A stretch of 14,793 nucleotides of DNA. It comes from a virus. Positions 1-14,753 of the stretch are shown one piece after another; positions within the stretch are counted from its first letter, which is position 1, and the number at the start of each line of letters is the position of its first letter. The notes below the pieces were generated by a model, which did not search any database, was not told where the DNA came from, and saw only the letters and a list, made by a program, of their open reading frames with translations. The stretch lies in the UHGV virus genome UHGV-0120184. One strand, 5' to 3'. The position numbers and the translations under genes were made by a program.

Positions 1-2
1 CC

Positions 3-404: not shown

Positions 405-407
405 ACA

Positions 408-440
408 GCAAAAACGCCCTGACACCAGGGCGTTATTATT
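408..440. terminator. Bidirectional rho-independent terminator between convergent operons
   Basis: A 9-bp perfect stem AACGCCCTG (413-421) / CAGGGCGTT (426-434) with loop ACAC. It is preceded by an A-run (gcaaaaa) and followed by ttattattt. It lies between the stop at 404 (+) and the gpU stop at 440 (-). Confidence 0.7.
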
Positions 441-913: not shown

Positions 914-915
914 TC

Positions 916-3747
916 CTAATCACGATCGCGGAAACTGTTCATACCGCCGGATTGTCTGCGAATTTCTTCCCGTACCGCCTCCCCCACCATTCTGGCAAGG
1001 TCGCGAGGGTTCTGCGTAACCACGTTGTGAAGGTGAACATGAATATCACCACCGTACACAGGCGGCGGTTCAGGAGAGCGCGAAGGCCCCCGGGGTGTCG
1101 GGGACACCGGATCCCACCGCTTAACCTCCACAGGACGGGAAGAATCCGGGGAAACCGCCGGAGACACAGGCGAAAACGCTGGCATAAGCGGAAGCCCGGG
1201 TGCAACAGTCGGTTCATTCCACTGCCCGCGAACAGCCAGCGCACGGGGGAGATTTTTAAACACGATATCGCCAGGACCGATACGCTTGCGGGCTTCCTGA
1301 AGCATACCCGACGTATTACCCTCGATACCTTTGAGCCTGCGAAGAACGCCACTGGTGCCGTCGTTTATGACAGAAGGCTTGCCACCATTATTACCTTTAT
1401 CATTGCCATCAACTGGCTTAGCGGGCGAGATAATGGCATTAACATCCCCCTGAAGCAGGGAGAGCTTGCCCTGAAGAAGCGAAGCCCGCTGTGCATCCTC
1501 CAGTTTCCGGCGCGCCCTTTCAGCTTCATCAGGCAGCACGCCAAGCTTTTCCAGTACCCAGGCAAGTCCATCCATCAGCGCCTTCAGCGGCGTAAGCGCA
1601 AGCGATATCGCCCCACTAAGTACACGACCGAAGCTTTCTCCCGCAGACGTACACCGTTCAAGAGATTCGTTGCTGGCCTGAACAGGCGTGAGTAACCGGG
1701 TAAACCAGTCAAACACCGTGGACACCGCACCCGACACCAGATCAAACAACGGCGCAAACTGAGCAATACTTTCACGAACAGGCGCAAGGCCAGCCCACAG
1801 CGACCGGAATGTGCCGAGCATGAACGCCTTAACCTGTTCCCAGTGACGCCATATGAGCAGCGCCCCACCGGCAAGAGCAGCAATCACGAGACCAACAGGA
1901 CTGAGAAGACCGGAAAGCACCCCGCCCAGCACAGAAACCGCACCGGAGACCATCCCCCACAGTGCCGGAAGGCCGGACAGGCGAAGAGCAAGACCACCAA
2001 CACCGTTTGTAAGCGAGGATAGCCCGCCACCAAGAAGCGCAGAGCCAAGCTGAAGTTTTGCAAAAATCCCCGTCAGTAACCCACCTCCGACAGACAACGC
2101 ACCAATGGCCGTTGTGGCCGCAAGCACGCCACCCACGGTAAGGGTCAGCGTGCGTACAAGCTGCGGGTTTTCCTGAACCCACGACCTGAAGCGTTCACCC
2201 ACAGAAGCAACAGCCTGTACAAGCTCGCGGATATCATCAGTAACCAGCGACACAACATCACTGCGAATACCGGAGAAAATGCCGGACAGACGATCGGTGT
2301 CGCCGCCGAGGTTGTCACGCAGAACATCCCCCATTCGCCGGGCGGTTCCCTGAACCAGCCCCATACGGTCAGATACCGTTGCAAGCGACCGGAGAAAATC
2401 CGGGATCTGGTCAACAGCCAGATCTTCAATGGGTGTGCCGAACAGCGCTATCGCCGCATTGGCCCGTTCTGCAGGATCCTGAATCTGTAACAGACCTGAC
2501 GCGGTGCGACGCATCGCTTCACGCGCGGCCGCGCCGCCACTGGCGATCGCTGACGACATTCTTTCAGCGTTAAGGCCAATCAGCTCATAGGCTTCAACGC
2601 TGGATTTGGACATATCCGAGCCGCGAATACTGAATTCTTTGACAGCATCGCCGGTTTTATCCAGGGCGAATTTCCCCTGCTGCGCCATGCTGACAAGCAG
2701 CGTCATGGTTTCAGAGCCGGATAGCCCCATATTGCGGAAATGCGTGGAATACTCATGCAGAATTTCAGGAAGTTCGCCGCGCATTTCGGCAGACATTTTC
2801 TGCATCCCTGCCGCCATCAGGTCGACGGCCTCACCTGCATTTGCGGCAAGCCCGTTTTTCAGCATAATGCCAGCAGCCTGAACCTGTTCAGCCACATTAC
2901 CGCCGGTGACCTGAGCAAGATCGATTGCCTGCCGTGTCACCCTTTCCAGTTCTTCAGTCCCTACGGTACCCAGTGCGCCAAGCGTGCTTTGCGCCGCAGC
3001 TGCTGCTTCCGAAATCATCGCGATATCCGTGGCCGCACCTGACGCACGGATGCTCTGAATCATACGGCTGTAGCGCTGGCCGTCTTCTGCGCTGCCGCCA
3101 CTCTGTGCCGCAATGAGCGCACCCTGCCGTTGCTCTTCAACAACAGGTGCAACCGCGCGACCGGCAGCATACAGACCGGCACTGCCAGCCGCCATGGCAA
3201 CAGCACCGCGCTGACTGAGCTTACCGGCAATATCCTGAACACGGTCATAGCGTTGCTGCGCCTGCGTGACGCGTGCAAGCTGGCCCCGCTGGCGTTCGAG
3301 CTGATCGTTGTATTCCTGCGTCCGCCTGATTGCCCTCTCGACCGCACGGTTACTTCCGTCCGCCCGTATACCGTGAGATTCCAGTTCGCGACTGGCTTCG
3401 CTAAGTCGGGATTTGTGGAGGGAATAAACCGTATTAAGGCGATCAATCTTCACAGTCAGCGAGCGTATAGCTTCCTGCTGTTTTTCCGTTAGTGTTGTGC
3501 CTGTACGCTGGGCCTCCTGGAGGCGCTGAAGTCGCGCACGCGCCTCGTTCAGACTGTTTTCAGTCGAGGTCACCTGCTGGCGGGCACGGGAAAACGCATC
3601 ACTGCTTCGCTGGAGTGACTTAAGAGCGTTCTGCGTGGAGGAAAGAGATTCGGAAAGCGCGCCGGTCATTTCCCGGGCGCGCCTGACGGGTTGAGTGAGA
3701 CGGTCGACCGCAGTAAGGGCTACACGTATCTGGAGATTATTACTCAT
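916..3747 (-). CDS. T: Tail tape measure protein (P2 gpT family), 943 aa from Met19 of the 961-codon ORF
   Basis: This is the longest ORF. It has a helical, Q/R/E-rich N-terminal half, Gly/Ala/Leu hydrophobic segments in the middle, and a position between E/E+E' and U. I prefer ATG 3747-3745 (MSNNLQIRV...) because the E+E' stop overlaps it as ATGAGTAA. Confidence 0.9.
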   Translation of the reverse strand: MSNNLQIRVALTAVDRLTQPVRRAREMTGALSESLSSTQNALKSLQRSSDAFSRARQQVTSTENSLNEARARLQRLQEAQRTGTTLTEKQQEAIRSLTVKIDRLNTVYSLHKSRLSEASRELESHGIRADGSNRAVERAIRRTQEYNDQLERQRGQLARVTQAQQRYDRVQDIAGKLSQRGAVAMAAGSAGLYAAGRAVAPVVEEQRQGALIAAQSGGSAEDGQRYSRMIQSIRASGAATDIAMISEAAAAAQSTLGALGTVGTEELERVTRQAIDLAQVTGGNVAEQVQAAGIMLKNGLAANAGEAVDLMAAGMQKMSAEMRGELPEILHEYSTHFRNMGLSGSETMTLLVSMAQQGKFALDKTGDAVKEFSIRGSDMSKSSVEAYELIGLNAERMSSAIASGGAAAREAMRRTASGLLQIQDPAERANAAIALFGTPIEDLAVDQIPDFLRSLATVSDRMGLVQGTARRMGDVLRDNLGGDTDRLSGIFSGIRSDVVSLVTDDIRELVQAVASVGERFRSWVQENPQLVRTLTLTVGGVLAATTAIGALSVGGGLLTGIFAKLQLGSALLGGGLSSLTNGVGGLALRLSGLPALWGMVSGAVSVLGGVLSGLLSPVGLVIAALAGGALLIWRHWEQVKAFMLGTFRSLWAGLAPVRESIAQFAPLFDLVSGAVSTVFDWFTRLLTPVQASNESLERCTSAGESFGRVLSGAISLALTPLKALMDGLAWVLEKLGVLPDEAERARRKLEDAQRASLLQGKLSLLQGDVNAIISPAKPVDGNDKGNNGGKPSVINDGTSGVLRRLKGIEGNTSGMLQEARKRIGPGDIVFKNLPRALAVRGQWNEPTVAPGLPLMPAFSPVSPAVSPDSSRPVEVKRWDPVSPTPRGPSRSPEPPPVYGGDIHVHLHNVVTQNPRDLARMVGEAVREEIRRQSGGMNSFRDRD

Positions 3748-4275
3748 CGTTATGATTCCCGGTTCTGACGGCCGCCCGTTCTCGCCAGGCAACCAGTTCA
3801 CCGGGAGTCATCACAAAGATTTCAGAGGGCGACCAGTGAAATACAACGGCTATATCAGCGACAATATCTTCAACGTAATCAAAAGCAAGAAGCGTTACGC
3901 GCCGCCCGCCTCCTGCGCCTTCTTCGCTGACGAGGGAAGCAAAAAACCGACTGCCACCTCGTACAGTTTAAAGAAGTCTTCCGGGCACATTGACATAAGT
4001 GCCGCGCGGCTGAGGTGAGGTTCAGTTACGCGTTCCAGAAAAATGGCGGCAGCATCAACATCGGTGTTGAACAGGTCCGTCATGCGGATCCCTCGAAGCG
4101 AGCCCACCTGACGCGCAAGCGCCCCAATCTTCACGCTGGAAACCGTCTTATTACCGCAGACAACAGGAACCCTGAGATTAACCGTGTCATTTGCGATCGC
4201 CTCTGCGTTTTCCGTGTCGCCATTCGTCACAGCATCTGTGTCATTCGTCACGATATTTTCTTCAGTCTGATCCAT
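3740..4275 (-). CDS. E+E': Tail assembly chaperone gpE+E', a -1 frameshift fusion product (about 178 aa: 112 zero-frame codons plus 66 codons in the -1 frame)
   Basis: After the slip at 3946-3940, the -1 frame stays open for 66 codons (..FASLVSEEGAGGGRRVTLLAFDYVEDIVADIAVVFHWSPSEIFVMTPGELVAWRERAAVRTGNHNDE). It ends at TAA 3742-3740, which overlaps the T start codon. Confidence 0.8.
3895..4275 (-). CDS. E: Tail assembly chaperone gpE (zero-frame product), 126 aa
   Basis: The ORF lies between the tube gene and the tape-measure gene. GGGAG sits 8 nt upstream of ATG 4275. The slippery heptamer lies near its 3' end, as in P2 E. Confidence 0.85.
   Translation of the reverse strand: MDQTEENIVTNDTDAVTNGDTENAEAIANDTVNLRVPVVCGNKTVSSVKIGALARQVGSLRGIRMTDLFNTDVDAAAIFLERVTEPHLSRAALMSMCPEDFFKLYEVAVGFLLPSSAKKAQEAGGA
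3940..3946 (-). promoter_or_regulatory. Programmed -1 ribosomal frameshift slippery heptamer T TTT TTG
   Basis: The minus strand reads GGT TTT TTG in the E frame (plus strand caaaaaa at 3940-3946). This is the heptamer known from the P2 E/E+E' chaperone pair. Confidence 0.8.
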
Positions 4276-4326
4276 TATTTTTCTCCCGGGGCAACAGGAC
4301 GCCGCCCCTGTTATCAGATTTAACTA

Positions 4327-4839
4327 TCAGCCAAGCCCCAGCATGGAGCGGGTGCGGTCAGGAAGAACATCCTTACCATCAATGCGCCAGATGAAGTTCA
4401 GCACGTCGATTTCAATAACATCGCTGTTATCAACGCTGAGCTTGTACCAGGTGCATTTCATCGCATAGGTATGTTCGGTATCTTCACCCTGTTTGGCCTC
4501 GCCCTTGTCGATTTCGACAATGCGACCACGGGCTTCAATATCGACGTACTCAATCCCTTCTTCGGAATAGTATTCACCCGAGAAGCGAACACGCACGGCA
4601 TCAATACCGGCGGCGTATTTGGCAAAGATGTGACGATCGACGCCACCAACCGCAAAGGAGAGATCCAGTGCACCATCATCAAGACCGAGATCCACCGACG
4701 CAGAGCCTGGCATCCCCGCCCCGCGATACGACTCTGTTTTACGGGTCAGTTTTGGCGGGGTAAAAGACGCCACCTTGCCCAGCTTGTTGTCACCGTCCAC
4801 AAAGACGGTAAACACACGAAGTTTTTTTGGTACGGCCAT
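4327..4839 (-). CDS. FII: Major tail tube protein gpFII
   Basis: A 170-aa ORF (MAVPKKLRVFTVFVDG...) with typical P2 FII size and position. Its ATG overlaps the sheath stop as TAATG at 4837-4841. Confidence 0.9.
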   Translation of the reverse strand: MAVPKKLRVFTVFVDGDNKLGKVASFTPPKLTRKTESYRGAGMPGSASVDLGLDDGALDLSFAVGGVDRHIFAKYAAGIDAVRVRFSGEYYSEEGIEYVDIEARGRIVEIDKGEAKQGEDTEHTYAMKCTWYKLSVDNSDVIEIDVLNFIWRIDGKDVLPDRTRSMLGLG

Positions 4840-6032
4840 TAGCTACCTCCAAGAGATGCAAAAGCAGAGCCAAAGAACTCGTCGGTAAACGTCTGATAGA
4901 GTTCCATACACTCCATCGGCGGAACAGGCGTGTATTTGTAGCGAATACGCACAATGCCCTGACGAAGACTGGTTGTGCCGTTGTCGATGATATCGAACCA
5001 GCACTCAGCCCCGATGAGTTTTCCGGCTGTCACCAGTGCATCCAGCTTTGCCTTGATAGCGCTCACGGCATCCTTAGCATTGGCAGGCGTAAGCGGTGAA
5101 TCCACTATCTGAAGTTGCGCCTCCGCAATGGTGTCAGCCAGTTGCTGCGCCGTACGTGTGTACACCTCAAAGATGTACTCCGCAGTTTCCGGCGTACGGT
5201 TACCCCAGAAACGGAAGGAGCCGTCGCCCTGGTGAATAAGAGTGGTCACCTCGCTATTGTTCAGCGTGTTGGCATCGCTGTTTTCATCCTGAAGTGACCA
5301 GGAAACAGACGCTGACACCCCAAGAACATTTTTCACAGGCATGTTAGAAAGGGAGCGATGCCAGCCCTGTTCATGGTCGAGTCGGGCACGAAGACCGCAC
5401 GCATACGCCGCAGCCGGGAAGGTTTCGTTTTTACCGGACACCGGGTTGAACGCAATGAAATCAGGCCACAGAAGCATGATTTCGCGACCGGAAATCTTTT
5501 TACGGAACGCAATAGCATCGGACGGTTTTGTGCAGCCAGGGCAGCCGGAATACGCAAATGCGCGCATTTTTCCGGCAACAGTCACCAGTGCAGCCGTGAC
5601 AGCATCCGATTCAAGGCCCGGAGCGGCAAGAATGCGGGGTCGGTAACCAATACCTTCCATCTGTTCGGCAACCAGAAGCGCCTGCATACCGCTGTAGCTT
5701 CCGTCTTCTTCCGTGGTACCAATGACCAGTTGATCCTGTGTTTTATTCTCAGCCCCCTCTTTTGCCGCCTCCACGCGAACGACAATCACCCGTGTACTGA
5801 CCTGGTCAGATATCGCTTTAAGGGCCTTATAAAGCGTGCCCGCTTTCCCGGCCTTCCCCAGAACAGAAGATACACGGGTAATCAGCACAGGCTTGTTAAG
5901 GGGGAACTGCCCGGTATCCGCATCATCTGCAACGGCAACAATACCAATGACGCTGGAATCAACGTCATTAATGGCCGTCACAAGGTCGGTATTCTCCGTG
6001 ACGCGCACACCGTGAAATCGTTTTTCAGCCAT
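4839..6032 (-). CDS. FI: Contractile tail sheath protein gpFI (397 aa from MAEKRFHGVRVTE)
   Basis: Strong resemblance to P2 FI: HGV.V.E near the N-terminus, FPLNKPVLIT, GW H.SLSN, TTLI...G.FRFWGNRT, YTRTAQ, and Y.YTPVPP near the C-terminus. I prefer the internal ATG 6032 over 6044, based on GGTGA upstream and alignment to the P2 N-terminus. Confidence 0.92.
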   Translation of the reverse strand: MAEKRFHGVRVTENTDLVTAINDVDSSVIGIVAVADDADTGQFPLNKPVLITRVSSVLGKAGKAGTLYKALKAISDQVSTRVIVVRVEAAKEGAENKTQDQLVIGTTEEDGSYSGMQALLVAEQMEGIGYRPRILAAPGLESDAVTAALVTVAGKMRAFAYSGCPGCTKPSDAIAFRKKISGREIMLLWPDFIAFNPVSGKNETFPAAAYACGLRARLDHEQGWHRSLSNMPVKNVLGVSASVSWSLQDENSDANTLNNSEVTTLIHQGDGSFRFWGNRTPETAEYIFEVYTRTAQQLADTIAEAQLQIVDSPLTPANAKDAVSAIKAKLDALVTAGKLIGAECWFDIIDNGTTSLRQGIVRIRYKYTPVPPMECMELYQTFTDEFFGSAFASLGGS

Positions 6033-6084
6033 ACGATTCACCATCAGTTGTGTTTATGCTCGCCTGAATAATCCACCATTGGCG

Positions 6085-6125
6085 CACAGCCCTCACCTGA
6101 TGCGGGCTGTGGGGATTTTTTTACA
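6085..6125. promoter_or_regulatory. Divergent late-promoter region: a TGT-N12-ACA dyad (6108-6125) overlapping a GC-rich hairpin plus T7 run
   Basis: TGT(6108-6110)-ggggattttttt-ACA(6123-6125) matches the dyad reported for Ogr-dependent P2 late promoters. It sits between the divergent FI (start 6032) and D (start 6186) genes. The same DNA forms the stem CACAGCCC (6085-6092) / GGGCTGTG (6104-6111), followed by ggga and TTTTTTT (6116-6122). Confidence 0.4.
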
Positions 6126-6185
6126 ACAGAGCCGGACAGAAACGACAAGGTACGCGTGGGATGATACGCACACGGGAGGGATATC

Positions 6186-7331
6186 ATGAGCATCACTGAA
6201 TCAGTAACACATCACATCAACAGCGCACTGGATGCAGCGGAAGATACCGTTAGGGTGCCAGACTTCACTATCACACTGGAAGGGAAAGATGCCAGCCTGA
6301 AGAACATCACGCAGCGCATCATGAGCCTGACCATGACAGACAACAGGGGTTTTGAGGCTGACAGGGTGACACTGGAAATCGACGACGCCGACGGCGGGGT
6401 GGTACTTCCGGAGCGCGGAACACGATTATCGCTGGCGATGGGATGGAAAGGTGAAAGCCTCACTCGCAAGGGGGCGTTTGTGGTGGACGAAGTGAGCCAC
6501 GAAGGTCCGCCGGATAAGCTGACCATATCCGCGAACAGTGCGGATTTTCGCGAAGAGTTTAACGTGAAACGCGAAGTCTCCTGGCATGACGTGACCGTTG
6601 AGCGTGTGGTATCTGCCATCGCGCACCGTTACGGACTGAAAGCACAAATCAGCGAAATGCTGATGAATATCGAAATCGACCATGCAGACCAGACAGAGGA
6701 AAGCGACATCTCGTTCCTCACGCGTATGGCTGACATGCTGGGTGCAATAACCACCGTAAAAAACGGGTGCCTGCTGTTCATTCTGCCGGGTGGCGGTGTG
6801 ACAGCCAGCGGGCGCGCCCTCCCCTCATTCGCCCTGACCCGCTCGGATGGCGACAGTCATCGCTTTCGCATTGCTGACAGAAAAGCCTATACCGGAGTGA
6901 AAGCTTACTGGCTGGATTTAAAGTTCGGCCAGAAGAAGGCCGTGAACGTGAAAAAGCGAAACGCGAAAACCACACAGAAGCCGGAGAAAAGCAGTTCACG
7001 GGAGGGTGGATACATGGAAGGCGCAGAAGGCAATGTGTATGTGCTGAGAAAAACCTACCCGAACGAAGAAGCCGCGCGTCGCGCAGCTGCCGCACGCTGG
7101 CAGCAACTTCAGCGGGGTGCAGCAGAATTCAGCATCACGCTGGCGCGCGGACGCGCCGACCTGTATCCGGAGATGCACGGCACGGTATCCGGGTTCAAGA
7201 GCGACATTGACAATCAGGACTGGATTATTTCGCGCATTGAGCACGTCATCGACGACAGCGGCTTCACCACCAGACTGGAGCTGGAAGCAAAAATCGCAGA
7301 CTGGATAGCAGAGCGCGCCACGACTGGCTAG
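6186..7331 (+). CDS. D: Phage late control/tail protein gpD
   Basis: A 381-aa ORF with GGGAGGG upstream. It contains the P2 gpD motifs LTMTDNRGFEAD, GWKG, F.VDEV.H.G.PD...I.A.SADF, SWHD, VTASG, ITRSDGD.H.F.IADR.AYTGV.A.W, QRG.AEFSI.LA.GRAD.Y and SGFK..ID.QDW.I..V.H...SGFTT.LELE. Confidence 0.93.
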   Translation: MSITESVTHHINSALDAAEDTVRVPDFTITLEGKDASLKNITQRIMSLTMTDNRGFEADRVTLEIDDADGGVVLPERGTRLSLAMGWKGESLTRKGAFVVDEVSHEGPPDKLTISANSADFREEFNVKREVSWHDVTVERVVSAIAHRYGLKAQISEMLMNIEIDHADQTEESDISFLTRMADMLGAITTVKNGCLLFILPGGGVTASGRALPSFALTRSDGDSHRFRIADRKAYTGVKAYWLDLKFGQKKAVNVKKRNAKTTQKPEKSSSREGGYMEGAEGNVYVLRKTYPNEEAARRAAAARWQQLQRGAAEFSITLARGRADLYPEMHGTVSGFKSDIDNQDWIISRIEHVIDDSGFTTRLELEAKIADWIAERATTG

Positions 7332-7372
7332 AATGAGCGCGAGCCCACCCCGTTTCAGCCAGGGGGACCATC

Positions 7373-7675
7373 ATGCATCCTTGCCCATACTGCGGAGCAA
7401 GTACCCGCACCAGAACAAGCCGCGACGCCAACGATACAGGAACAATCAGGGAGAAATATTACCAGTGCAACAACATTGAATGCAGCGCCACCTTTGTGAC
7501 GCACGAGTTTGTCGTGAGAACCGTATGCCGTCCGCAACCCACCGAAGAACGGGGAGTCGTCCCCGCAGACGCTTTCAAATCATGCCACCGGGGAAGGGAT
7601 CAACTCAGCCTCCCCCTGGGCGATTGCGCCTCCCAGTCAAAAACTGTACATTACGCGCGGGTGCCTTTCGGCTGA
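7373..7675 (+). CDS. ogr: Ogr/Delta-type zinc-finger late transcription activator, with a C-terminal extension relative to the ~72-aa P2 Ogr
   Basis: MHPCPYCG...(22 residues)...CNNIECSATF reproduces the CxxC-N22-CxxxxC Ogr finger (P2: CPLCQ...CQNVNCSATF). GGGGGA lies upstream of the ATG. The gene follows gpD directly, as in P2. Confidence 0.88.
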   Translation: MHPCPYCGASTRTRTSRDANDTGTIREKYYQCNNIECSATFVTHEFVVRTVCRPQPTEERGVVPADAFKSCHRGRDQLSLPLGDCASQSKTVHYARVPFG

Positions 7676-7805
7676 CGGCTGGAAGGATTACCTGAAGGCC
7701 GGATGTGGAAAGGCCCCGGAAAACATCTCTGTTTAGCCGAGGCCCTAATCTACATATCTTTAGCAAGTAGAAGGTTAGCGCCTCTTTGAAAAAGGAGCAA
7801 GCGCT

Positions 7806-7946
7806 ATGCCGCAAAAAACGATCATCGTGAGCATTTTATGCTTAACCATGTTGTTGACCGTCTGGATGATACATCGTTCACCATGTGAATTCAGACTTAA
7901 CATCATGTGGTCAGAATTTGCGGCGTTCTTGCAGTGTAAACCGTAA
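7806..7946 (+). CDS. Hok/Gef/PndA-family type I toxin-like small membrane peptide (46 aa), below the ORF-track length threshold
   Basis: The translation is MPQKTIIVSILCLTMLLTVWMIHRSPCEFRLNIMWSEFAAFLQCKP. AGGAG lies 8 nt upstream. It has an N-terminal TM helix followed by S.CE.R and ..AAF. Compare PndA (MPQRT...VWMVRDSLCGLRL) and Hok ([21 protein letters not shown]), both recalled from memory. Confidence 0.7.
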   Translation: MPQKTIIVSILCLTMLLTVWMIHRSPCEFRLNIMWSEFAAFLQCKP

Positions 7947-8041
7947 GAAACCGCAGCGGGGGTGAAAGCCCCCGCTATCCGGTTGCCGAAGGTTCGGTCG
8001 AAAGCCGCACCCGTGCATGCAAGTGACAAAGAAAAAACAAA

Positions 8042-8071
8042 GCCCGCAGCGTAAAAACTGCGGGCTTTTTT
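8042..8071 (+). terminator. Rho-independent terminator closing the hok-like transcription unit
   Basis: Stem GCCCGCAG (8042-8049) / CTGCGGGC (8058-8065) with an 8-nt loop, followed by TTTTTT (8066-8071). The A-rich run upstream (8031-8041) could let it work on the minus strand too. Confidence 0.75.
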
Positions 8072-8112
8072 ATTCACATACCGAAGGTGTGGTAACTGCC
8101 TGGGTTCAGACC

Positions 8113-8136
8113 AAAAAAAGCCCCATAAAATGGGGC
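8113..8136 (-). terminator. Rho-independent terminator on the minus strand
   Basis: Stem GCCCCA (8120-8125) / TGGGGC (8131-8136) with a 5-nt loop. On the minus strand it is followed by TTTTTTT (complement of the A-run 8113-8119). It lies about 300 nt downstream of the minus-strand AT-rich operon. Confidence 0.55.
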
Positions 8137-8432
8137 TGAAGATTCTGTAAGGAATTTCACAGCAATGAGATTCTAGTCTCTTCCAATGATATATGAGTCT
8201 TCAGCCTGAATCAATGGGGCATGACTGTGAATCCACCGACGATCAAAACTTGCACAATGCCTGAAGTTGAGTTAGAAAAGTACCGGGCGCGATATCCGGT
8301 TTATTTTTTGTTGCTGTGTTTTGCCTCGTGCCGGATATCGCGTCCACCGTTTTTCTGATGATTCTTATGAAATCGTACTTTATTGATTTACTGCCATCCT
8401 GGTTTGTCTTTTTATGTTCATTATTGCGACAG

Positions 8433-8828
8433 TCATTTCCTGTTTCTGGTGATGTTTTGATAAAAGTGAAAGAATAAAACGATCATTGCAGAAGGTATTG
8501 CTAAAACCATACATATCATTATATAAACAAGATGAAAATGATATATACCATAAGACCAGAAAAAAGGTTTTTTCCAGAATGATATGGATGTGTATTTTAG
8601 TGTAATTGTTTTTGTCAGGTATATTGAACAAGGAAGAGCCAGGCCACTGAGTATCAGAAATAAGTCAACTTTTATCGATGCTTCTGTTGGTGTGTCATAT
8701 ATAAGATGCAATATGGATATTATAATGGGGCACATTCCCCACAGGATATTTTTGAAATAGAATTTCCGGTTCATATGTTTATGCTCTTTGGTTTTATCCC
8801 GGGAATTGGCGCTTTGTTTTTTATTCAT
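8433..8828 (-). CDS. Small integral membrane protein (131 aa, about 4 predicted TM segments), function unknown
   Basis: Hydrophobic segments include ILWGMCPIIISILHLIY, LFLILSGLALPCSIYL, FFWSYGIYHFHLVYIMICMVLAI and PSAMIVLFFHF. Its ATG (8828-8826) overlaps the upstream stop as ATGAATAA. Composition is very AT-rich. Confidence 0.6.
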   Translation of the reverse strand: MNKKQSANSRDKTKEHKHMNRKFYFKNILWGMCPIIISILHLIYDTPTEASIKVDLFLILSGLALPCSIYLTKTITLKYTSISFWKKPFFWSYGIYHFHLVYIMICMVLAIPSAMIVLFFHFYQNITRNRK

Positions 8829-9492
8829 GAACGTTTTCGTTGTTTAATAACCATGGGGTATTATGATTATCCTTTATTTTTGATATGTAATTGTCAATAG
8901 TGGATTTCGTTTCATTATTGTGGTTATAGTAATCATGAAGAGTGCAAAACACATCATCTTTTATTGTGGCGATTAATGGGGCTTGTGTGAGGGTAAAATA
9001 TAAAGAACGATTACTTAGTGTCCTGAAATAAATTTTTTCGCCAATGACCAGATCGGTGTTCATTATATTGTAGCCTATTTCAAATATATTGTTTGATGGC
9101 ATGTGTAATACATATGTGGGGTATTTGTTGTGTTTTTTCATTAAATAATAAATAAAATCAGATACAGGCATCTGTTTTAGTTTTTTTTGCATCTTCCTTA
9201 TGTGTTGTGACATTAATATCATTTTCGAGAGAATGCATAAGAGACTAAACAAGAGATTAAATACTATGTTCAGTACTATCAGAGTAACAAACAGGCCAAT
9301 GCTCCTTAGCGCTGAAAATATATTGTCATTGTAAATATACTGGAATGTATATCCGGCTGATAAAAATGCCAATATATATAACACTATGTCTGTTTTATTT
9401 CGCTTTTTTATTTTGTAGGTTATTGCTGATTTTAAGAATAAGATGGCAATAAGAGCAGTGATAACCCAGAAAAATATAACGGAAACTTCCAT
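8821..9492 (-). CDS. Membrane-anchored protein (223 aa: three N-terminal TM segments plus a soluble C-terminal domain of about 125 aa), function unknown
   Basis: The TM segments are VIFFWVITALIAILFL, IVLYILAFLSAGYTF and LFVTLIVLNIVFNLLFSLLCIL. An N/K/Y-rich domain follows. AAAGG lies 7 nt upstream of ATG 9492. This is the first gene of the two-gene operon. Confidence 0.6.
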   Translation of the reverse strand: MEVSVIFFWVITALIAILFLKSAITYKIKKRNKTDIVLYILAFLSAGYTFQYIYNDNIFSALRSIGLFVTLIVLNIVFNLLFSLLCILSKMILMSQHIRKMQKKLKQMPVSDFIYYLMKKHNKYPTYVLHMPSNNIFEIGYNIMNTDLVIGEKIYFRTLSNRSLYFTLTQAPLIATIKDDVFCTLHDYYNHNNETKSTIDNYISKIKDNHNTPWLLNNENVHE

Positions 9493-9542
9493 AATTATAC
9501 CTTTATCGTGTTTTCAGGGAGGTAATTTATCATTGTGCTGAT

Positions 9543-9562
9543 ATGCATGTAAATACATGCAT
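9543..9562. promoter_or_regulatory. Perfect 20-bp palindrome ATGCATGTAAATACATGCAT in the leader of the AT-rich operon (operator or 5'-UTR hairpin candidate)
   Basis: Two 9-bp arms ATGCATGTA / TACATGCAT separated by 2 nt. The palindrome begins 51 bp upstream of ATG 9492. Confidence 0.4.
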
Positions 9563-9694
9563 TATCTGTTTCTTATATTCTTTTTATGAAGTTACTGATT
9601 AATTTATATTAAAACAACACATTCATAATGAAATCAACATGTTCATATGGTTGACGGCAGATTTCTCTTTTTGTTAACCTGCATCTGCATTAAC

Positions 9695-9939
9695 TGTCGC
9701 TTCGGCGACCACCAATGTTCCATAGTGGCCTGTGAGGAACGCCTTCGGGTGGCCCATGTCGCTCCGGCGACCACCAATGCTCCATATGACCTGTGAGGAG
9801 CGCCTTCGGGTGGTCAGTTTTACACCTCCGTAGCCTGAAAGGAGCTGTGAGTACTGAAGGGAAACATCCCTGATGTATGGGCAAATCTGCACACCTTTGA
9901 GAGCAGATGTCACTACGGTTTTACGTGATGATGAAGGCA
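9695..9939. repeat. Direct repeat copy A (245 nt) containing tandem units 9696-9757 (62 nt) and 9758-9817 (60 nt)
   Basis: It aligns base-for-base with 12489-12733 and differs by 3 T/C transitions (9702, 9878, 9914). The shared motif taac lies just upstream of both copies. Confidence 0.95.
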
Positions 9940-9941
9940 TT

Positions 9942-9971
9942 CCGGATTCCGTTCCGGTACTTTTATTTTTT
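9942..9971 (+). terminator. Small rho-independent terminator immediately 3' of repeat copy A
   Basis: Stem CCGGA (9942-9946) / TCCGG (9953-9957) with a 6-nt loop, then tac and TTTTATTTTTT (9961-9971). The stem is short, so confidence is modest. Confidence 0.45.
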
Positions 9972-10117
9972 CTCAGCAGACAGGCATAAAAACGCCTTTA
10001 AAATCTGCGTCTTAAGATATTTTCTGACTTTCCGCATGAGCTTCTTATGACTGTGCGCACGGCATAAGACCATTTGAAATTTGGTCGCTTGCGTGTGCAT
10101 GTGGAGTTTGAAGCTGT

Positions 10118-10163
10118 GCGGCGTCACTTGCGTGCGACCGAAGGGAACACCAAGTGACGCCGC
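10118..10163. other. 13-bp perfect inverted repeat (long hairpin) in the 743-nt untranslated region upstream of the recombinase gene
   Basis: GCGGCGTCACTTG (10118-10130) / CAAGTGACGCCGC (10151-10163) with a 20-nt loop. A second composite hairpin lies at 10285-10320. Confidence 0.6.
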
Positions 10164-10682
10164 GGCCATCTGCCCTGAAGGCAGCATCACGTAAGGTCTG
10201 GCAGAAAATCGTCGCTCGTGACAAGCGTCCTGATGCTCGTTTTGTCGCTCTGACAACGTCTTTCGGTGACGTATCCACGCCTTTCCGGCGCGTCCGTTTT
10301 CACACGGACGGCCACGCCGGAATGTCTTCTTAAACTTCGTAATACATGAGAGGTAAGTGTATTAACTGACTGAAATAAAGGAATAAAAATGAAAAATCGT
10401 TCTGATGTCGGGAGGCGTCATCGTAAGGTGACGGGGAGTATTCCTCAACAATCGCCCTGGTGCACAGGTAGCGAACTCCTGTAAGAACTCAACATGTGCA
10501 AGCTCTGCTACATCGACATCAAACGAGCCAGGAAGGCGAACAACCGCGTTACAGAGCCGTCCGTGATGACGAAAAACTAACAATATCAACGAACTTTTCT
10601 GTTTACCGGAAGGGCTGCGTATGCAGTTTTACTTTGTGAACGGAAGGGGGCTGCATCTGATTTTTACAGGGAGAATGACTTT

Positions 10683-11600
10683 ATGGCCCGGAAATCGTCA
10701 CGTTCTAAAGTTGAACTGTTTCGCAAGTCTTTCATCTCACTTGCCCGTGAGTGTGGTGGCAGTTACGCAACAACAGCTGACAGAATGAGAATTGCAAAGT
10801 ACTTCCTGAATTATTTACGTGAAAATGGAATTAAACTTCGCCAGACGAGCAGTATTAAAACCAGACATATTTCTGGTTACCTTCTCAGCAGGAAAGCAGC
10901 GGGTATTTCTCACCGGACTATTCAGAATGAACGGGCGGTTATGCGTGCCATTTTAGAAAAAGATGGACGACTTAAAATCGCAGATCCTTCTAACCCATTA
11001 TTGAGTAATGAAGCGCTCGGCCTAAAGGATACATGCCGTGATGGAAAGAAAATAGCATTGTCACCGGATGAATTCTGGAAAGCATTTGCTAAAGTGGAAA
11101 AAAAGAATCCTGGTGTGGCAGCTGCAATGCAGCTTTCTTATGTTCTGGGTTTAAGAACAAAAGAAGCCGTTCAGTCATGTAAGTCTGTTCAGTCATGGCT
11201 ACGGGAACTGAATTCAGGGTGCGATTCTCTTTCGGTCGTTTTTGGTACGAAAGGTGGAAGACCAAGAAATACCACAATTATTGACAGAGATGCGGTAAGA
11301 CATGCTTTGCTTTATGCTCAAAAAATAATGGATGAACACGACGGAAAACTTATTGACCGTCCAAATATAAAACAGGCTATCAATGTTTTTCGTTATCATG
11401 CCCGTAAAGCGGGATTGTCAGGAGTGAAATCTCCGCACAGTATGCGTTATCATTTTTCTCAGGAAGCCAGAAAATTTTATCGAAAAAATGGATATGGAGA
11501 GTCGGAAATCTACGCTCGTGTTTCTATGGATCTTGGCCATGGTGACGGAAGAGGTCGTTATGTAAAACAGGTTTATTTTAACGGTTCTGATGAAAGTTGA
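10683..11600 (+). CDS. Tyrosine recombinase / integrase-like protein (305 aa) with a SAM-like N-terminal domain
   Basis: The full catalytic signature is readable: R in YVLGLRTKEA, K in FGTKGGRPR, H-x-x-R in HSMRYHF, H in LGHGDGRG, and candidate nucleophile Tyr in GRYVKQVY. It resembles the proteobacterial family annotated as integrase domain-containing protein (from memory, not searched). Confidence 0.8.
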   Translation: MARKSSRSKVELFRKSFISLARECGGSYATTADRMRIAKYFLNYLRENGIKLRQTSSIKTRHISGYLLSRKAAGISHRTIQNERAVMRAILEKDGRLKIADPSNPLLSNEALGLKDTCRDGKKIALSPDEFWKAFAKVEKKNPGVAAAMQLSYVLGLRTKEAVQSCKSVQSWLRELNSGCDSLSVVFGTKGGRPRNTTIIDRDAVRHALLYAQKIMDEHDGKLIDRPNIKQAINVFRYHARKAGLSGVKSPHSMRYHFSQEARKFYRKNGYGESEIYARVSMDLGHGDGRGRYVKQVYFNGSDES

Positions 11601-11603
11601 TAT

Positions 11604-12341
11604 TTAAAATGAATCTGGAGGATATGTGTTTTTGTTAATTTCGGTTATGATGATTTCTGATGCGCGATTACACATATCTTCATCAAAATACCCAATATGA
11701 CATTCATGAATGTGACAATTCAGTTTTCTGGATAGCCATATATTTGCCTCGTTACGGGATATGTTGGCTCTTTGCTGATAATTGTCAAAAAGTTTACGTA
11801 CTTTTGTTCTGAGTATTCTCAGGTTTTCTTTAGCCGGAGTACCTAATGGTCTTCCTGAGTTTTTATGGCATCCAACCCATGCATTGCATGGGGGACAAAT
11901 CCAGTAATATTTGTTTTCTGTCGCGGCTGAAATGGAAAATGGCATGAGAGCCCCTTTTATAAGATTCGTCTTATTTCCACAGTATGGGCAGATAACAATT
12001 GGTCGGACATCTGCAATATTCAGTGATGTATAAGTCAGTCGTTCATTTTTAACGATGTTTCTCTTTCCGCAATGGGTGAGAACATGCTTTATTGTATCTA
12101 ATTCTTCTCGTAGTATTTTGGAACTGACGCCAGTGCGATAACGTTGTTGAAAATAGCATTCAATATGACGTAGTTTTATGCTATTTGCTGAGCTTATCTG
12201 TATATTGGCATCTTTAAGAAATGAAGCAAGTCTTCTGGCTCTTCCCGTATATACCAACATATCTTCTGGCGTCGGGGCGCATGCTTTGGCTATTCTGAGT
12301 AGTTCATCTTTTAATTTTTTGTATTTCGATTTCATTTTCAC
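11604..12341 (-). CDS. Recombinase N-domain paralogue fused to a Cys4 zinc ribbon (245 aa); no catalytic domain
   Basis: Its N-terminal part aligns with the N-terminal part of the 305-aa protein: NSIKLRHIECYF vs SSIKTRHISGYL, and GVSSKILREELDTIKHVL vs GISHRTIQNERAVMRAIL. The C-terminal half has CPYCG..(29 residues)..CPPCNAWVGCH, then RPLGTPA..LR..R. This resembles the zinc-ribbon family I recall as DUF3268 (needs an HMM check). Confidence 0.7.
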   Translation of the reverse strand: MKMKSKYKKLKDELLRIAKACAPTPEDMLVYTGRARRLASFLKDANIQISSANSIKLRHIECYFQQRYRTGVSSKILREELDTIKHVLTHCGKRNIVKNERLTYTSLNIADVRPIVICPYCGNKTNLIKGALMPFSISAATENKYYWICPPCNAWVGCHKNSGRPLGTPAKENLRILRTKVRKLFDNYQQRANISRNEANIWLSRKLNCHIHECHIGYFDEDMCNRASEIIITEINKNTYPPDSF

Positions 12342-12488
12342 ATCTCTCTTACAGGTTCATAAAGAGTGTTACTGAATTAAAAAATATCAAATTGAGCTGG
12401 CCTTGTCAGTCAGCTGTAGGTTATTACCATAGCCACGACAACAACTTGAAGTTTTATGTTGTTTATGATTATATTTTAGACGCTAACT

Positions 12489-12733
12489 TGTCGCTCCGGC
12501 GACCACCAATGTTCCATAGTGGCCTGTGAGGAACGCCTTCGGGTGGCCCATGTCGCTCCGGCGACCACCAATGCTCCATATGACCTGTGAGGAGCGCCTT
12601 CGGGTGGTCAGTTTTACACCTCCGTAGCCTGAAAGGAGCTGTGAGTACTGAAGGGAAACATCCCTGATGTACGGGCAAATCTGCACACCTTTGAGAGCAG
12701 ATGTCACCACGGTTTTACGTGATGATGAAGGCA
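12489..12733. repeat. Direct repeat copy B (245 nt) containing tandem units 12490-12551 and 12552-12611
   Basis: Same orientation as copy A, with 242 of 245 positions identical by manual alignment. Confidence 0.95.
12489..12733 (+). ncRNA. Candidate structured ncRNA or leader, copy B
   Basis: Same structure as copy A. There is a sigma70-like TTGAAG (12446-12451), an 18-nt spacer, then TATATT (12470-12475). This predicts a start within a few nt of the repeat's 5' boundary. No terminator follows this copy. Confidence 0.4.
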
Positions 12734-12866
12734 CTTTGTATACAATGTGACTATGAGTTGTCTCTGGTCTTCTTAAGCGCATCGTGCTGACGCATTGATG
12801 TGTTCACCTGACGGATTTTCCAGTCCGTCAGGGCGGAACGTCCGTCTTTTTCATTCGGAGGTTCCG

Positions 12867-13268
12867 ATGTTTATACCACTTTTGTTACGTGCAGATATGC
12901 GCATAACGCCTTTCTTTCATCTTCTCAGACAATGTCTGTTTAATCAGAAGCGTTGTGTTCACCCACAACAGCCCTGGTCCGCTCCACAACTGAGGCATCT
13001 GTACTGCACTCCGTGGTTTATTAACGCCACCGGCAATCTGTCAGTCAGAGCCTGCATTGTTTCCACCAACGGTGCATTGCGACACTGCTTTGAGTTCCGT
13101 GAAGGCTCTCACAGCCGTGAATATCGTTACTGGTTTGAGGCACTTCCGCTGTCTGTCGTGCGGTTTAATGTCTTTACCGGTCGAATATCTGCTCGCCGCA
13201 CGCTTTCTGCTGCCTCCCGTATGGCCGTGCAGCTTACTTCTTTTCGCTATCGCTTCGGTCTTCGCTGA
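12867..13268 (+). CDS. Hypothetical basic, Cys/Trp/Arg-rich protein (133 aa from the internal Met); coding status doubtful
   Basis: GGAGG lies 5 nt upstream of ATG 12867. A hairpin (13278-13296) follows the stop. The composition is odd and the region is hairpin-rich, so it may be non-coding. Confidence 0.3.
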   Translation: MFIPLLLRADMRITPFFHLLRQCLFNQKRCVHPQQPWSAPQLRHLYCTPWFINATGNLSVRACIVSTNGALRHCFEFREGSHSREYRYWFEALPLSVVRFNVFTGRISARRTLSAASRMAVQLTSFRYRFGLR

Positions 13269-13379
13269 AGCCTGTTGAACGGTCGTCATGACCGTTGAAA
13301 GGTTTATCACACAACGCCCGGATCTGTCTGACCGTACCACGCGTGCGCGATGACAAATCTGAGTTTTCCTTAACCCGTC

Positions 13380-13417
13380 CGGGACCGCTCCCGTTCGGGG
13401 ACGGTCCCGCTGTTTTT
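13380..13417 (+). terminator. Strong GC hairpin plus T5 run immediately upstream of the next gene's RBS (terminator or attenuator)
   Basis: CGGGACCG (13380-13387) / CGGTCCCG (13402-13409), with an inner UCCC-GUUC-GGGG helix. It is followed by ctgTTTTTa. AGGAG at 13421-13425 and ATG 13433 follow. Confidence 0.55.
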
Positions 13418-13432
13418 ATCAGGAGATTGTTT

Positions 13433-13813
13433 ATGGGACTCGATATTTTTTTCCTTGGGCGTGATCGTGTTACCGACGCGGTAGTATCGGTACCGGAAAC
13501 GCGGGAAGTGGGTTACTTTCGCAAGGTTAACCCACTGATTGCCTGGTTTGAGACGCATTGTGGACCGGTTGAAAATGCCGTGGAGCGTCCGGTTTCCAGA
13601 ACGGAACTGGAGGCACTACTGAGCGATCTTGAATGCCTTACGCCGGAGAACTGCCGGGAATTCTTCCCCACAACAGAAGGATTCTTTTTTGGTTCTCAGG
13701 AGTATGACCAGTATTACTGGAAGGATGTTGAGATCGTGAAATCGTGGGTCAGAAGCACGCTTGATTCGTTTGATTTTGAACGAAAAATACTGTTGCTCTG
13801 GGCATGGTGGTAA
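13433..13813 (+). CDS. Hypothetical protein (126 aa, MGLDIFFLGRD...LLLWAWW)
   Basis: I chose the internal Met of the 13295..13813 ORF because AGGAG lies 7 nt upstream and the upstream part is occupied by the hairpin/terminator. A terminator follows. A remnant paralogue of its C-terminus lies at 14434-14508. Confidence 0.65.
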   Translation: MGLDIFFLGRDRVTDAVVSVPETREVGYFRKVNPLIAWFETHCGPVENAVERPVSRTELEALLSDLECLTPENCREFFPTTEGFFFGSQEYDQYYWKDVEIVKSWVRSTLDSFDFERKILLLWAWW

Positions 13814-13851
13814 TTATTTTTCTGTCCTTGTTTTTAACCTTATTACCCTGT

Positions 13852-13896
13852 CGGGAACATGTGTCCCGTAGGGCAGGTGTGTTCCCGTAATTTTTT
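13852..13896 (+). terminator. Rho-independent terminator after the 126-aa gene
   Basis: CGGGAACA (13852-13859) / TGTTCCCG (13880-13887) followed by taaTTTTTT (13888-13896). An alternative inner pairing uses TGTCCCG. Confidence 0.55.
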
Positions 13897-13913
13897 GTAT
13901 CTGAGGTGAACAC

Positions 13914-14393
13914 ATGAATAGTCTGTTAATACTCCTTTACGTTGTTGTATGCCGTGCCTGCACCATTCTTCGGGTAATCGCACCAGTGTCGTCTGTCCGT
14001 GCGTGGTGTGAGTATCAACTGGAAGGTATGACGATACTTCGTGATGCGTACAGCTCGCTGGCTAAGGCGGCTGGAATGCAGAATGATGCATTTGAATATC
14101 TTGAAAGTATTGCTCGTCATCTGGGCTACGAAAGCGGTGGTGACCAACTGAAATCAGGACTTTTCCGGCCGTTTCTGTGGCATATACGTGCGAAAGGCCA
14201 CAGGCTGGGAGCTGTCATGGAAATGGCGGTATGGCAGGCATGGAAGAATGGCTGTAACGATGTCTGCAATCCATGGGAGGATGTCTACAATCCATGGGAC
14301 CGTGGATGGAACGATGGCTGGACTGAATGTCTGGATCAACGTATAGCCGGTCTCCTGAAGGCGGTCTGTATTGACTTTTCCGACGCCGACTGA
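13914..14393 (+). CDS. Hypothetical protein (159 aa) with a hydrophobic N-terminus and a W/N/P-rich C-terminal segment (CNPWEDVYNPWDRGWNDGW)
   Basis: GAGGTG lies 5 nt upstream of ATG 13914. I recognise no family. Confidence 0.5.
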   Translation: MNSLLILLYVVVCRACTILRVIAPVSSVRAWCEYQLEGMTILRDAYSSLAKAAGMQNDAFEYLESIARHLGYESGGDQLKSGLFRPFLWHIRAKGHRLGAVMEMAVWQAWKNGCNDVCNPWEDVYNPWDRGWNDGWTECLDQRIAGLLKAVCIDFSDAD

Positions 14394-14433
14394 ACGGTTT
14401 TTCTTTTACTTACTGTACCGTGTACCTGCGTCG

Positions 14434-14508
14434 GTGGCGTGGGTCAGCGATACGCTGAAGACGTTTGATTTTGAGCGTCATTCACTGGTGATGCTGGCGT
14501 TGTGGTAA
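14434..14508 (+). pseudogene. Remnant of a paralogue of the 13433..13813 gene (C-terminal ~24 codons only)
   Basis: The translation VAWVSDTLKTFDFERHSLVMLALW* matches VKSWVRSTLDSFDFERKILLLWAWW* at the end of the 126-aa protein. The frame is open only from 14359 and has no start codon. Confidence 0.55.
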
Positions 14509-14600
14509 GTCCGGCCAGTCTGATTTTCGTTATTAATTTAACCGTATGGTGCATGTTCACCGTACGGGGAGCATGCATCTTTTTTATGGAGCGTGCTCTT

Positions 14601-14753
14601 ATGAAAACGAAAAAACATACTTCATGTCCCGTGAACAAAACCCCGGAGCGTGACCTGTATCAGCTGGTGACGGACAGGGTGATTGAGGCCATCGAAAAGG
14701 GCGTAGCCCCCTGGCAACGTCCATGGCGCTCAGTACGGTGTCAGCGCCAGTGA
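14601..14753 (+). pseudogene. ArdC-like (DUF1738-type) anti-restriction/ssDNA-binding protein, N-terminal ~50 codons only; truncated
   Basis: MKTKKHTSCPVNKTPERDLYQLVTDRVIEAIEKGVAPWQRPW matches the hallmark DLYQ.VT..II..LE.G..PW..PW N-terminus. A stop occurs at 14751-14753, whereas full-length proteins are about 300 aa. No frame continues to the window edge. Confidence 0.5.

Follow-up and report, generated by a model that had tools for sequence, protein, structure and literature searches.

Colicin E1-type immunity proteins bind the channel domain of a colicin within the inner membrane, and the wider E1/Ia type (Pfam PF03526) includes Cei, Iia and the alveicin A immunity protein. Other small inner-membrane proteins act in exclusion. 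The entry-exclusion proteins Eex of the SXT/R391 elements and TraS of F are encoded near traG and are strongly diverged between similar elements, and the superinfection-exclusion proteins Imm of phage T4 and SieA of phage P22 are small and stem from AT-rich, horizontally acquired genes. Here, we describe a cassette of two genes for membrane proteins, named ORF1 and ORF2 (ORF, open reading frame), on the minus strand of the UHGV virus genome UHGV-0120184; the whole stretch analysed, 14,793 nucleotides (nt) in length, is termed the window. The reading that we favour, with moderate confidence, is that this cassette of low G+C content is cargo of an ICE (integrative and conjugative element), encoding an orphan colicin E1/Ia-type immunity protein (ORF2) and an independent membrane protein (ORF1), and is unrelated to the prophage that lies beside it.

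Orphan immunity genes, which are found without a toxin gene, are common on Escherichia coli plasmids; those of the pore-former class are the commonest, and they have been read as protection against competitors (bioRxiv 10.1101/2024.11.06.622277). The same survey required more than 99% identity to the immunity proteins of known colicins and was confined to plasmids (bioRxiv 10.1101/2024.11.06.622277), so such a screen would miss ORF2, which likewise has no toxin gene but is a distant homologue carried on an ICE or genomic island.

When the cassette is set beside the described systems, ORF2 is like the E1/Ia-type proteins in size, in its three hydrophobic segments, in several of its motif positions and in an alignment that runs end to end from MNRK(F/Y)YF. 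Its gene is chromosomal (on an ICE or island), whereas those of the E1/Ia type are found on Col plasmids. ORF1 may be compared with Eex and TraS as an inner-membrane protein encoded near traG on a conjugative element and diverged between similar elements, but its relatives also occur outside any conjugative element, and the likeness noted is one of position and divergence. In size, AT-richness, horizontal acquisition and inner-membrane type the cassette proteins may also be likened to T4 Imm and P22 SieA; they differ from these in that no homology was found, that ORF1 is absent from the phage database and that the cassette lies outside the prophage.

Homology of ORF2 to colicin immunity proteins

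The homology of ORF2 was established by comparing a profile of its alleles with six annotated immunity proteins, which gave an hhalign probability of 98.5% (E 2.5e-15) over 103 columns beginning at residue 1. The six references comprise the alveicin A immunity protein (Hafnia alvei pAlvA), one colicin Ia immunity protein, one Ia-linked E1-family gene, two Klebsiella E1-family orphans and one Serratia gene. Reversal of the target sequences reduced the match to E 0.15; this reversed control was used because block-shuffled controls, in which the blocks retain true homologous segments, were uninformative. The same relationship is seen by tblastn, where ORF2 matched each of the six reference loci at E 1e-6 to 1e-7. 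Against 72,556 plasmids it gave 534 weak matches (<60% identity), and query coverage was at least 80% in 536 of 537 matched plasmid records. Among the 39 matches listed, 36 fall on annotated colicin Ia/E1-family immunity genes and three on genes annotated 'hypothetical protein' at the same Klebsiella locus.

In the multiple alignment, the N-terminus of ORF2 (MNRKFYFKNILWG) corresponds to MNRKYYFNNMWWGW in the Ia immunity protein, and ORF2 shares with the references a WG in the first transmembrane (TM) segment, a P in the second, an L(K/R), an FW and the P position of the third. At 113 amino acids (aa), compared to 81-119 aa in the references, it has the size as well as the three-segment layout of this family. 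The exact 113-aa protein is present on 980 contigs, and its entries in NCBI and UniRef read 'colicin immunity protein' or 'putative colicin immunity protein [E. coli Xuzhou21]'. RefSeq annotation by the Prokaryotic Genome Annotation Pipeline (PGAP) omits ORF2 in the complete genomes inspected. In the papers found when a colicin-immunity gene was sought in O-islands 43 and 48 (OI-43/48), the lone mention of a colicin immunity protein concerns a different, plasmid-borne gene.

It had been stated from the outset that no cognate toxin gene is visible in the window, and a tblastn search with four pore-forming colicins against the window and two other alleles of the cassette bears this out: neither a colicin gene nor a remnant of one turned up. 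Colicin matches in the tape-measure gene were rejected as spurious (Ala-rich). As no colicin gene or remnant lies nearby, ORF2 is an orphan immunity gene. Judged from its sequence, it is a diverged, orphan homologue of colicin E1/Ia-type immunity proteins, and would be expected to protect against a colicin. The original prediction had offered superinfection exclusion, abortive infection or bacteriocin immunity as the function of the pair; the full-length E1/Ia homology supports the last of these for ORF2, and the phage-directed framing is not supported.

A profile search with ORF2 against PDB sequences found nothing. The phage database gave matches to ORF2 only in three Klebsiella phage records, 110-120 kb in size, at genes that are themselves colicin-immunity-like. 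Other orphan immunity genes of the E1 family are found, without a colicin gene but next to genes for an integrase and the toxin YafO, on Klebsiella IncFIB plasmids of ~110 kb (loci L004 and L007) and in Klebsiella phage records H74-H76, which shows that they also travel on plasmid and phage records of similar size (~110 kb).

Extent and conservation of ORF2

Both minus-strand reading frames that had originally been called are present (table 1), the second as a mechanical ORF of 131 aa. This longer form was thought to be translationally coupled to ORF1 through ATGAATAA at 8821-8828. The sequence is there, but the overlapping ATG at 8828 is limited to the window allele. The O111/O157-type allele has AGG in its place and a third allele AGA, and the O111-type allele has in addition a 1-nt deletion at 8816; there is thus no conserved coupling signal. 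By contrast, the three alleles do not differ at the ATG at 8774 or in the codons that follow, and since the colicin-immunity homology also begins there, the likely product of ORF2 is the 113-aa protein, with a start 46 nt downstream of the ORF1 stop. Kyte-Doolittle analysis gives this form three hydrophobic segments (residues 7-25, 33-54 and 75-106) instead of the four or so TM segments predicted earlier.

ORF2 is under purifying selection, with a ratio of non-synonymous to synonymous substitution rates (dN/dS) of 0.26-0.36 across the three alleles. For the same allele pairs (window versus L002 and L012), dS is two to four times lower in ORF2 (0.06-0.09) than in ORF1 (0.10-0.31), which suggests either a recombination boundary within the cassette or an extra constraint on ORF2 DNA.

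ORF1 and its family

ORF1 belongs to a small Enterobacterales family of membrane proteins. An exhaustive HMMER search of 1.84 billion representative proteins recovered 27 relatives, of which the full-length members are 198-228 aa long and the named sources are E. coli, Serratia and Atlantibacter. Homologues extend down to 20% identity, and what the members have in common is an MDRSLxFFY motif at the N-terminus, a set of three hydrophobic helices and, conserved at the C-terminus, a domain with the pattern WYVLY.PS.N..EIG.N ... KTL(S/T)GR ... FY ... Y..IK...PW. An AlphaFold2 (AF2) model of ORF1 based on a 14-sequence alignment has a predicted local distance difference test (pLDDT) score of 75.9 overall, and of ~70-92 per 10-residue block in the C-terminal domain; a four-sequence alignment had yielded an unusable model (pLDDT 46.8). 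The model contains helices at residues 3-29, 34-55 and 58-107, followed by five strands and two helices, and so agrees with the original description of a three-TM protein with a soluble domain of ~125 aa. Clusters of basic residues follow TM1 and TM3; by the positive-inside rule, the loop sequences predict a protein with its N-terminus outside and its C-terminal domain in the cytoplasm.

Across the three alleles ORF1 is under purifying selection (dN/dS 0.34-0.65), with values of 0.54-0.72 in the membrane half versus 0.20-0.60 in the C-terminal domain. Searches of Pfam, NCBIfam, PHROGs and PADLOC with ORF1 and 22 family members returned nothing recurrent, and ORF1 itself matched no entry of Pfam, NCBIfam or PADLOC. 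The single PHROGs match of ORF1 (phrog_12739, a generic membrane-protein family; E 6.7e-4) is marginal and confined to the TM region, and in PADLOC-DB 2.0 there was no match at E <=1 for ORF1 or ORF2 and only two isolated ones (E 0.011 and 0.021) for the 22 family members. With Foldseek, the best E values were 0.36 against the PDB (Tudor/SH3-like scraps only) and 0.41 against BFVD. No tblastn match to ORF1 was found in 50,697 phage genomes, and a literature search found nothing under the accessions of the cassette proteins.

The profile of ORF1 searched against PDB sequences retrieved only a short ubiquitin beta-hairpin motif, which was judged a chance match. The conserved hairpin at residues ~152-167 (window ~8992-9039), with the pattern K(F/I)Y.KTL(S/T)GR...(F/I).P, gives weak, repeat-summed matches to ubiquitin residues 1-28 (IFVKTLTGKTITLEV); this resemblance is probably due to chance, as the predicted order of strands departs from the beta-grasp fold.

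Distant homologues of ORF1 are solitary genes, 6-17 percentage points lower in G+C than their flanks, and lie between core or unrelated genes: between argA and recD in Serratia sp. L9, between rplS and ydcA in Atlantibacter, and beside a sugar-utilization cluster in a metagenome contig. No ORF2-like neighbour is present at the Serratia, Atlantibacter or metagenome loci (the contig search for the Atlantibacter member gave four loci, and a degenerate-pattern metagenome scan two). The existence of such solitary relatives elsewhere indicates that ORF1 has a function independent of ORF2. Closer to the window, an ICE of E. coli MS15052 carries an ORF1 homologue that is 41% identical, in the same position and orientation, while the TraG_N and integrase-like proteins of the two elements are 87-88% identical; ORF1 diverges much faster than the ICE backbone. 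In MS15052, the place of ORF2 is taken by an unrelated soluble ORF of 105-111 aa (MNSTRKEKYSAF...) with no Pfam match.

The element that carries the cassette

The window consists of the tail end of a P2-like prophage (1-7638) and, from 7639, of DNA belonging to a different element. Positions 7639-14738 are 99.7% identical to a region of E. coli S19-651 (L001 11540-18639) that has no prophage there. The occurrence of the same DNA without the prophage indicates that the P2-like phage inserted into the ICE, and the point of insertion is 135 nt past the gene for ribosomal protein L31 type B (L31B) and 20 nt ahead of the match to a sok-like RNA. The gene order in E. coli S19-651 begins with conjugation genes (TIGR03749/52/51/57/56), a conjugative ATPase, TraG_N, L31 type B and hok, and continues through ORF1 and ORF2 to a STAXI RNA, an integrase-like gene (PF12835), a DUF3268 zinc-finger gene, a second STAXI and the genes for ArdC, LPD29 and DUF1281 proteins. 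The cassette had been placed close to the prophage end, which holds by coordinates only: it lies 0.8 kb from that end but on the far side of the 7638/7639 junction, outside the prophage. Placement between the attachment sites and co-inheritance with the prophage, as expected of prophage cargo, are not seen, and the same flanks with the cassette are found in prophage-free genomes. In several independent genomes it sits between TraG_N/L31B/hok on one side and STAXI/integrase-like/ArdC on the other.

Of 5426 complete E. coli genomes, 589 contain a megablast match to the cassette; the matches occupy 605 places, 604 of which are on the chromosome. Taking the best place per record, identity is at least 99% in 13 records and 90-95% in 572, the latter including O157:H7 and O111; a third allele is found in further ICE copies. 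In O111 strain 11128, the cassette is part of the urease/tellurite island, where it is flanked by L31B-hok and, at its other end, by IS66 elements and the ter genes. When ORF1 relatives were sought on plasmids, three E. coli plasmid records of 0.2-1.4 Mb proved to carry the island; these are probably chromosomal or mis-assigned. The only match in IMG/VR is one contig of 8.4 kb in which ORF1 is 100% identical, and it is most simply explained as a prophage call that spills into its flank.

One check suggested at the start was whether the cassette is a variable occupant of its locus, and related ICEs go part of the way towards an answer. In the same slot, that of E. coli MS15052 has the 41%-identical ORF1 allele and the unrelated 105-aa ORF, and a third ICE lineage has an unrelated membrane ORF of 106 aa and no ORF1 homologue. 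The slot thus holds other small genes in related ICEs and is variable.

Weighing the explanations

In the reading that we favour, the element would be a pKLC102/ICEEc2-like ICE with a mating-pair formation system of type G (MPF-G), and its decayed relative would be the urease/tellurite island of O157, O111 and other E. coli that produce Shiga toxin (STEC). The P2-like prophage would have arrived later, at a point 0.8 kb left of the cassette, and would have nothing to do with it. One minus-strand transcript, from a promoter near 9524-9553, would give rise to two inner-membrane proteins. ORF2, by homology a three-helix inner-membrane protein, would attach to the channel domain of an incoming pore-forming colicin as this domain inserts, so that no open channel forms; its gene, an orphan or 'cheater' among immunity genes, would guard the host of the ICE from the colicin of a competitor. 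ORF1 would act beside it as an independent protective or exclusion determinant at the level of the membrane.

Several observations weigh against this reading. Among immunity proteins that have a known colicin partner, none is more than 31% identical to ORF2, for which reason no cognate colicin can be named. It scores 14.7 bits (E 0.027, over residues 52-88 of the 131-aa form) against the PF03526 model 'Colicin E1 (microcin) immunity protein', for which the gathering threshold is 25, and would accordingly be a divergent member outside the reach of the curated model. One Glu, present without exception in the six references (IE[KD]xAL), is replaced by Thr or Lys in ORF2 (LTKTITL). Four of the reference loci include a toxin gene, and there the gene for immunity is convergent with that of the pore-forming colicin, whereas ORF2 has no convergent colicin gene and is preceded on its own strand by the gene of an unrelated membrane protein; a convergent colicin neighbour marks a cognate pair, not a protein family. 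For ORF1, the lack of any informative sequence or fold match makes the assigned role a guess from context, and the MS15052 homologue is a pseudogene with a stop after ~150 codons (L021 4469-5562). That ORF1 is a second, stand-alone protective or exclusion determinant at the membrane is therefore proposed with low confidence. Going further, ORF1 might found a new Enterobacterales family of membrane-anchored protective determinants (for immunity, phage exclusion or ICE entry exclusion), teamed on the ICE with an orphan colicin immunity gene as a 'protection operon'; we consider this possible but doubtful.

The pair could alternatively be a prophage-borne moron that confers superinfection exclusion or abortive infection in the manner of Sie, Imm or RexAB. 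Small membrane proteins of foreign composition beside a prophage end would fit such a role, as would the solitary low-G+C islets formed by ORF1 relatives, which are like many exclusion genes, and the predicted cytoplasmic domain of ORF1 could sense or block an incoming macromolecule. However, the cassette is outside the prophage and unchanged where the prophage is missing, the 50,697 phage genomes gave no tblastn match to ORF1, no PADLOC model matches either protein, and the few phage-record and IMG/VR matches are the Klebsiella immunity-like genes and the probable spill-over contig described above. The homology of ORF2 points to colicins and not to phages. We find a moron distinctly improbable. 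A different role for ORF1 alone is suggested by the ICE itself, namely that it is the entry-exclusion determinant of this ICE family (an analogue of SXT Eex or F TraS), recognized by the TraG of the donor, with ORF2 as unrelated cargo. It would act in the inner membrane of the recipient. ORF1 is an inner-membrane protein with a predicted cytoplasmic C-terminal domain, encoded ~2.5 kb from the TraG_N gene; an identity of 41% at the same slot versus 87-88% in the backbone is typical of specificity determinants, and it is the N-terminal membrane part that evolves faster. Yet relatives stand alone in the core chromosome without conjugation genes (argA-recD in Serratia; after rplS in Atlantibacter), ORF1 is retained in the non-conjugative urease/ter island, and the third ICE lineage lacks a homologue in the slot, all of which make entry exclusion unlikely.

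It is also conceivable that the two genes form a toxin-immunity or addiction pair stabilizing the ICE, in which ORF1 would be a membrane-damaging toxin and ORF2 its recruited neutralizer. They are adjacent on the same strand with no terminator between them and lie beside another stability locus, hok/sok, and the family of ORF2 neutralizes membrane-inserting toxins. But homologues of ORF1 occur alone in at least four unrelated contexts without an ORF2-like partner, the related ICE has an unrelated soluble ORF of 105 aa after its ORF1 homologue, and ORF1 is unlike colicin pore-forming domains, so that this pairing is very improbable. Finally, that the AT-rich DNA is intergenic and one or both of its frames open by chance might be argued from the absence of ORF2 in the PGAP annotation of several complete genomes and from the high dN/dS of ORF1 (0.65) between the closest alleles. 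This is effectively refuted: at 31% G+C, a frame of 223 codons stays open and free of indels in three alleles whose proteins are 77-87% identical, dN/dS is below 1 for both genes, ORF1 has homologues down to 20% identity that keep the C-terminal domain, and ORF2 has full-length homology to a known family. The explanation that the cassette is ICE cargo comprising an orphan immunity gene and an independent membrane-protein gene remains the one we prefer.

Composition, regulatory sites and neighbouring features

The positions of individual features are collected in table 1. The sharp fall in G+C content that first drew attention to the cassette is confirmed: the value is 0.31 for 8380-9690, whereas the flanks have 0.46-0.47 and the prophage part (1-7638) has 0.55. 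The counts of 21, 18 and 14 G+C per 60 nt for the lines at 9001, 9061 and 9121 are exact.

Table 1. Features of the window and of the cassette, in order of position.
Feature	Position	Strand	Details
Tape-measure gene	916-3801		P2-like prophage part
Tube and sheath genes			P2-like prophage part of window
gpD-like gene	6186-7331		P2-like prophage part
Ogr/Delta zinc-finger gene	from 7373 (ORF 7373-7675)		Pfam E 1e-15
Prophage/ICE junction	7638/7639		prophage to the left, ICE DNA to the right
sok-like RNA match	7659-7816		Rfam E 1.4e-8, below gathering score
hok/gef-family toxin ORF	7807-7947	+	ICE-side context, outside cassette; read from sequence
Terminator-like hairpin and T-run	8119-8137	-	~300 nt past ORF2 stop; pattern match
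ORF2	8433-8774	-	113 aa and stop; mechanical ORF to 8828 (131 aa)
ORF1-ORF2 spacer	8775-8820	-	46 nt; weak AAGAG Shine-Dalgarno-like motif 9 nt before ATG
ORF1	8821-9492	-	223 aa; three N-terminal TM helices and C-terminal alpha/beta domain of ~125 aa
Promoter-like site	9524-9553	-	TTTACA, 18 nt, TAAATT, TG motif; consensus pattern match, upstream of ORF1
Inverted repeat ATGCATGTA-AA-TACATGCAT	9543-9562		9+2+9, overlaps -35 hexamer
STAXI RNA motif	9695-9868	+	Rfam 78.2 bits vs gathering 40.5; divergent from cassette promoter
Integrase_1 (PF12835) gene	10683-11600		within STAXI/EFASI bracket
Phage_int_SAM_2 and DUF3268 zinc-finger gene	11604-12341		within STAXI/EFASI bracket

Upstream of ORF1, all four aligned sequences keep the -35 hexamer of the promoter-like site, and all but one of them keep the -10 hexamer. 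The inverted repeat that overlaps it had been described as a perfect 20-bp palindrome, but its 9-bp arms surround a non-complementary AA centre, and the right arm is mutated to ACACACAT in three other loci, which represent the two other alleles. Because the repeat is not conserved, its function is doubtful; compared by eye with consensus sequences, it did not fit a site for LexA, TyrR, Fur or CRP. The minus-strand terminator proposed downstream is matched by a terminator-like hairpin, which reads from 8137 to 8119, and the pattern scan found no terminator-like site between ORF1 and ORF2. Co-transcription of the two genes is plausible from this arrangement of sites. On the plus strand, there is a hairpin with a T-run at 8282-8300 and, by eye, an inverted second copy of CCGGATATCGCG at ~8332-8343; the 8282-8343 hairpin and repeat are matched by no gene or Rfam family. 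The most divergent stretch between alleles is 8100-8430.

To the left of the cassette, the hok/sok-type locus (7659-7947) is ~84% identical to the mok/hok loci of Shiga toxin 2 (Stx2) phages, and behind it lies a bidirectional terminator at 8039-8068; in E. coli S19-651 (L001), L002 and L023, the orthologous position bears a Hok/Gef annotation. Matches to the phage database begin at 7638, in the hok region. For the gpD/ogr end of the prophage (6100-7638), megablast found no match in 50,697 phage records, and only the hok part to the right has matches, which are to Stx phages; the prophage is thus a P2-like phage without a close relative at the DNA level among deposited phages. The ogr frame (100 aa, with the Pfam domain at residues 4-51) runs over the 7638/7639 junction into ICE DNA, so its C-terminal tail and stop codon come from the insertion site.

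To the right, the STAXI motif at 9695-9868 marks the start of the integrase-like/ArdC region of the ICE. Two STAXI motifs (9695-9868 and 12489-12662) and one EFASI motif (10397-10525), all on the plus strand, bracket the Integrase_1 gene and the Phage_int_SAM_2 and DUF3268 zinc-finger gene. The STAXI copies are within direct repeats of ~250 bp (9691-9939 and 12484-12733), and the same layout is found in the related ICEs L021 and L022. These motifs might be single-strand promoters or single-strand initiation (ssi)-like elements of the leading region of the ICE, a candidate role based on their location directly ahead of ArdC or ArdA and other establishment-type genes.

Significance

Part of this picture was already known, in that some databases label ORF2 a colicin immunity protein; the family of ORF1 is unnamed. 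The cassette opens no long-standing question, and the finding is real but fairly ordinary. ORF1 represents a compact, well-conserved and unannotated membrane family; its domain is modelled with confidence, yet found no match in the PDB or BFVD. The module is present in ~11% of complete E. coli genomes, including O157:H7 and O111. ORF2 for its part is a case of a diverged colicin-immunity gene, one whose cognate toxin is not known, that is carried by an ICE and, in major STEC lineages, by the urease/tellurite island. It adds to the view that immunity genes are retained as protection in bacterial competition, and points to a pore-forming colicin that is yet to be discovered.

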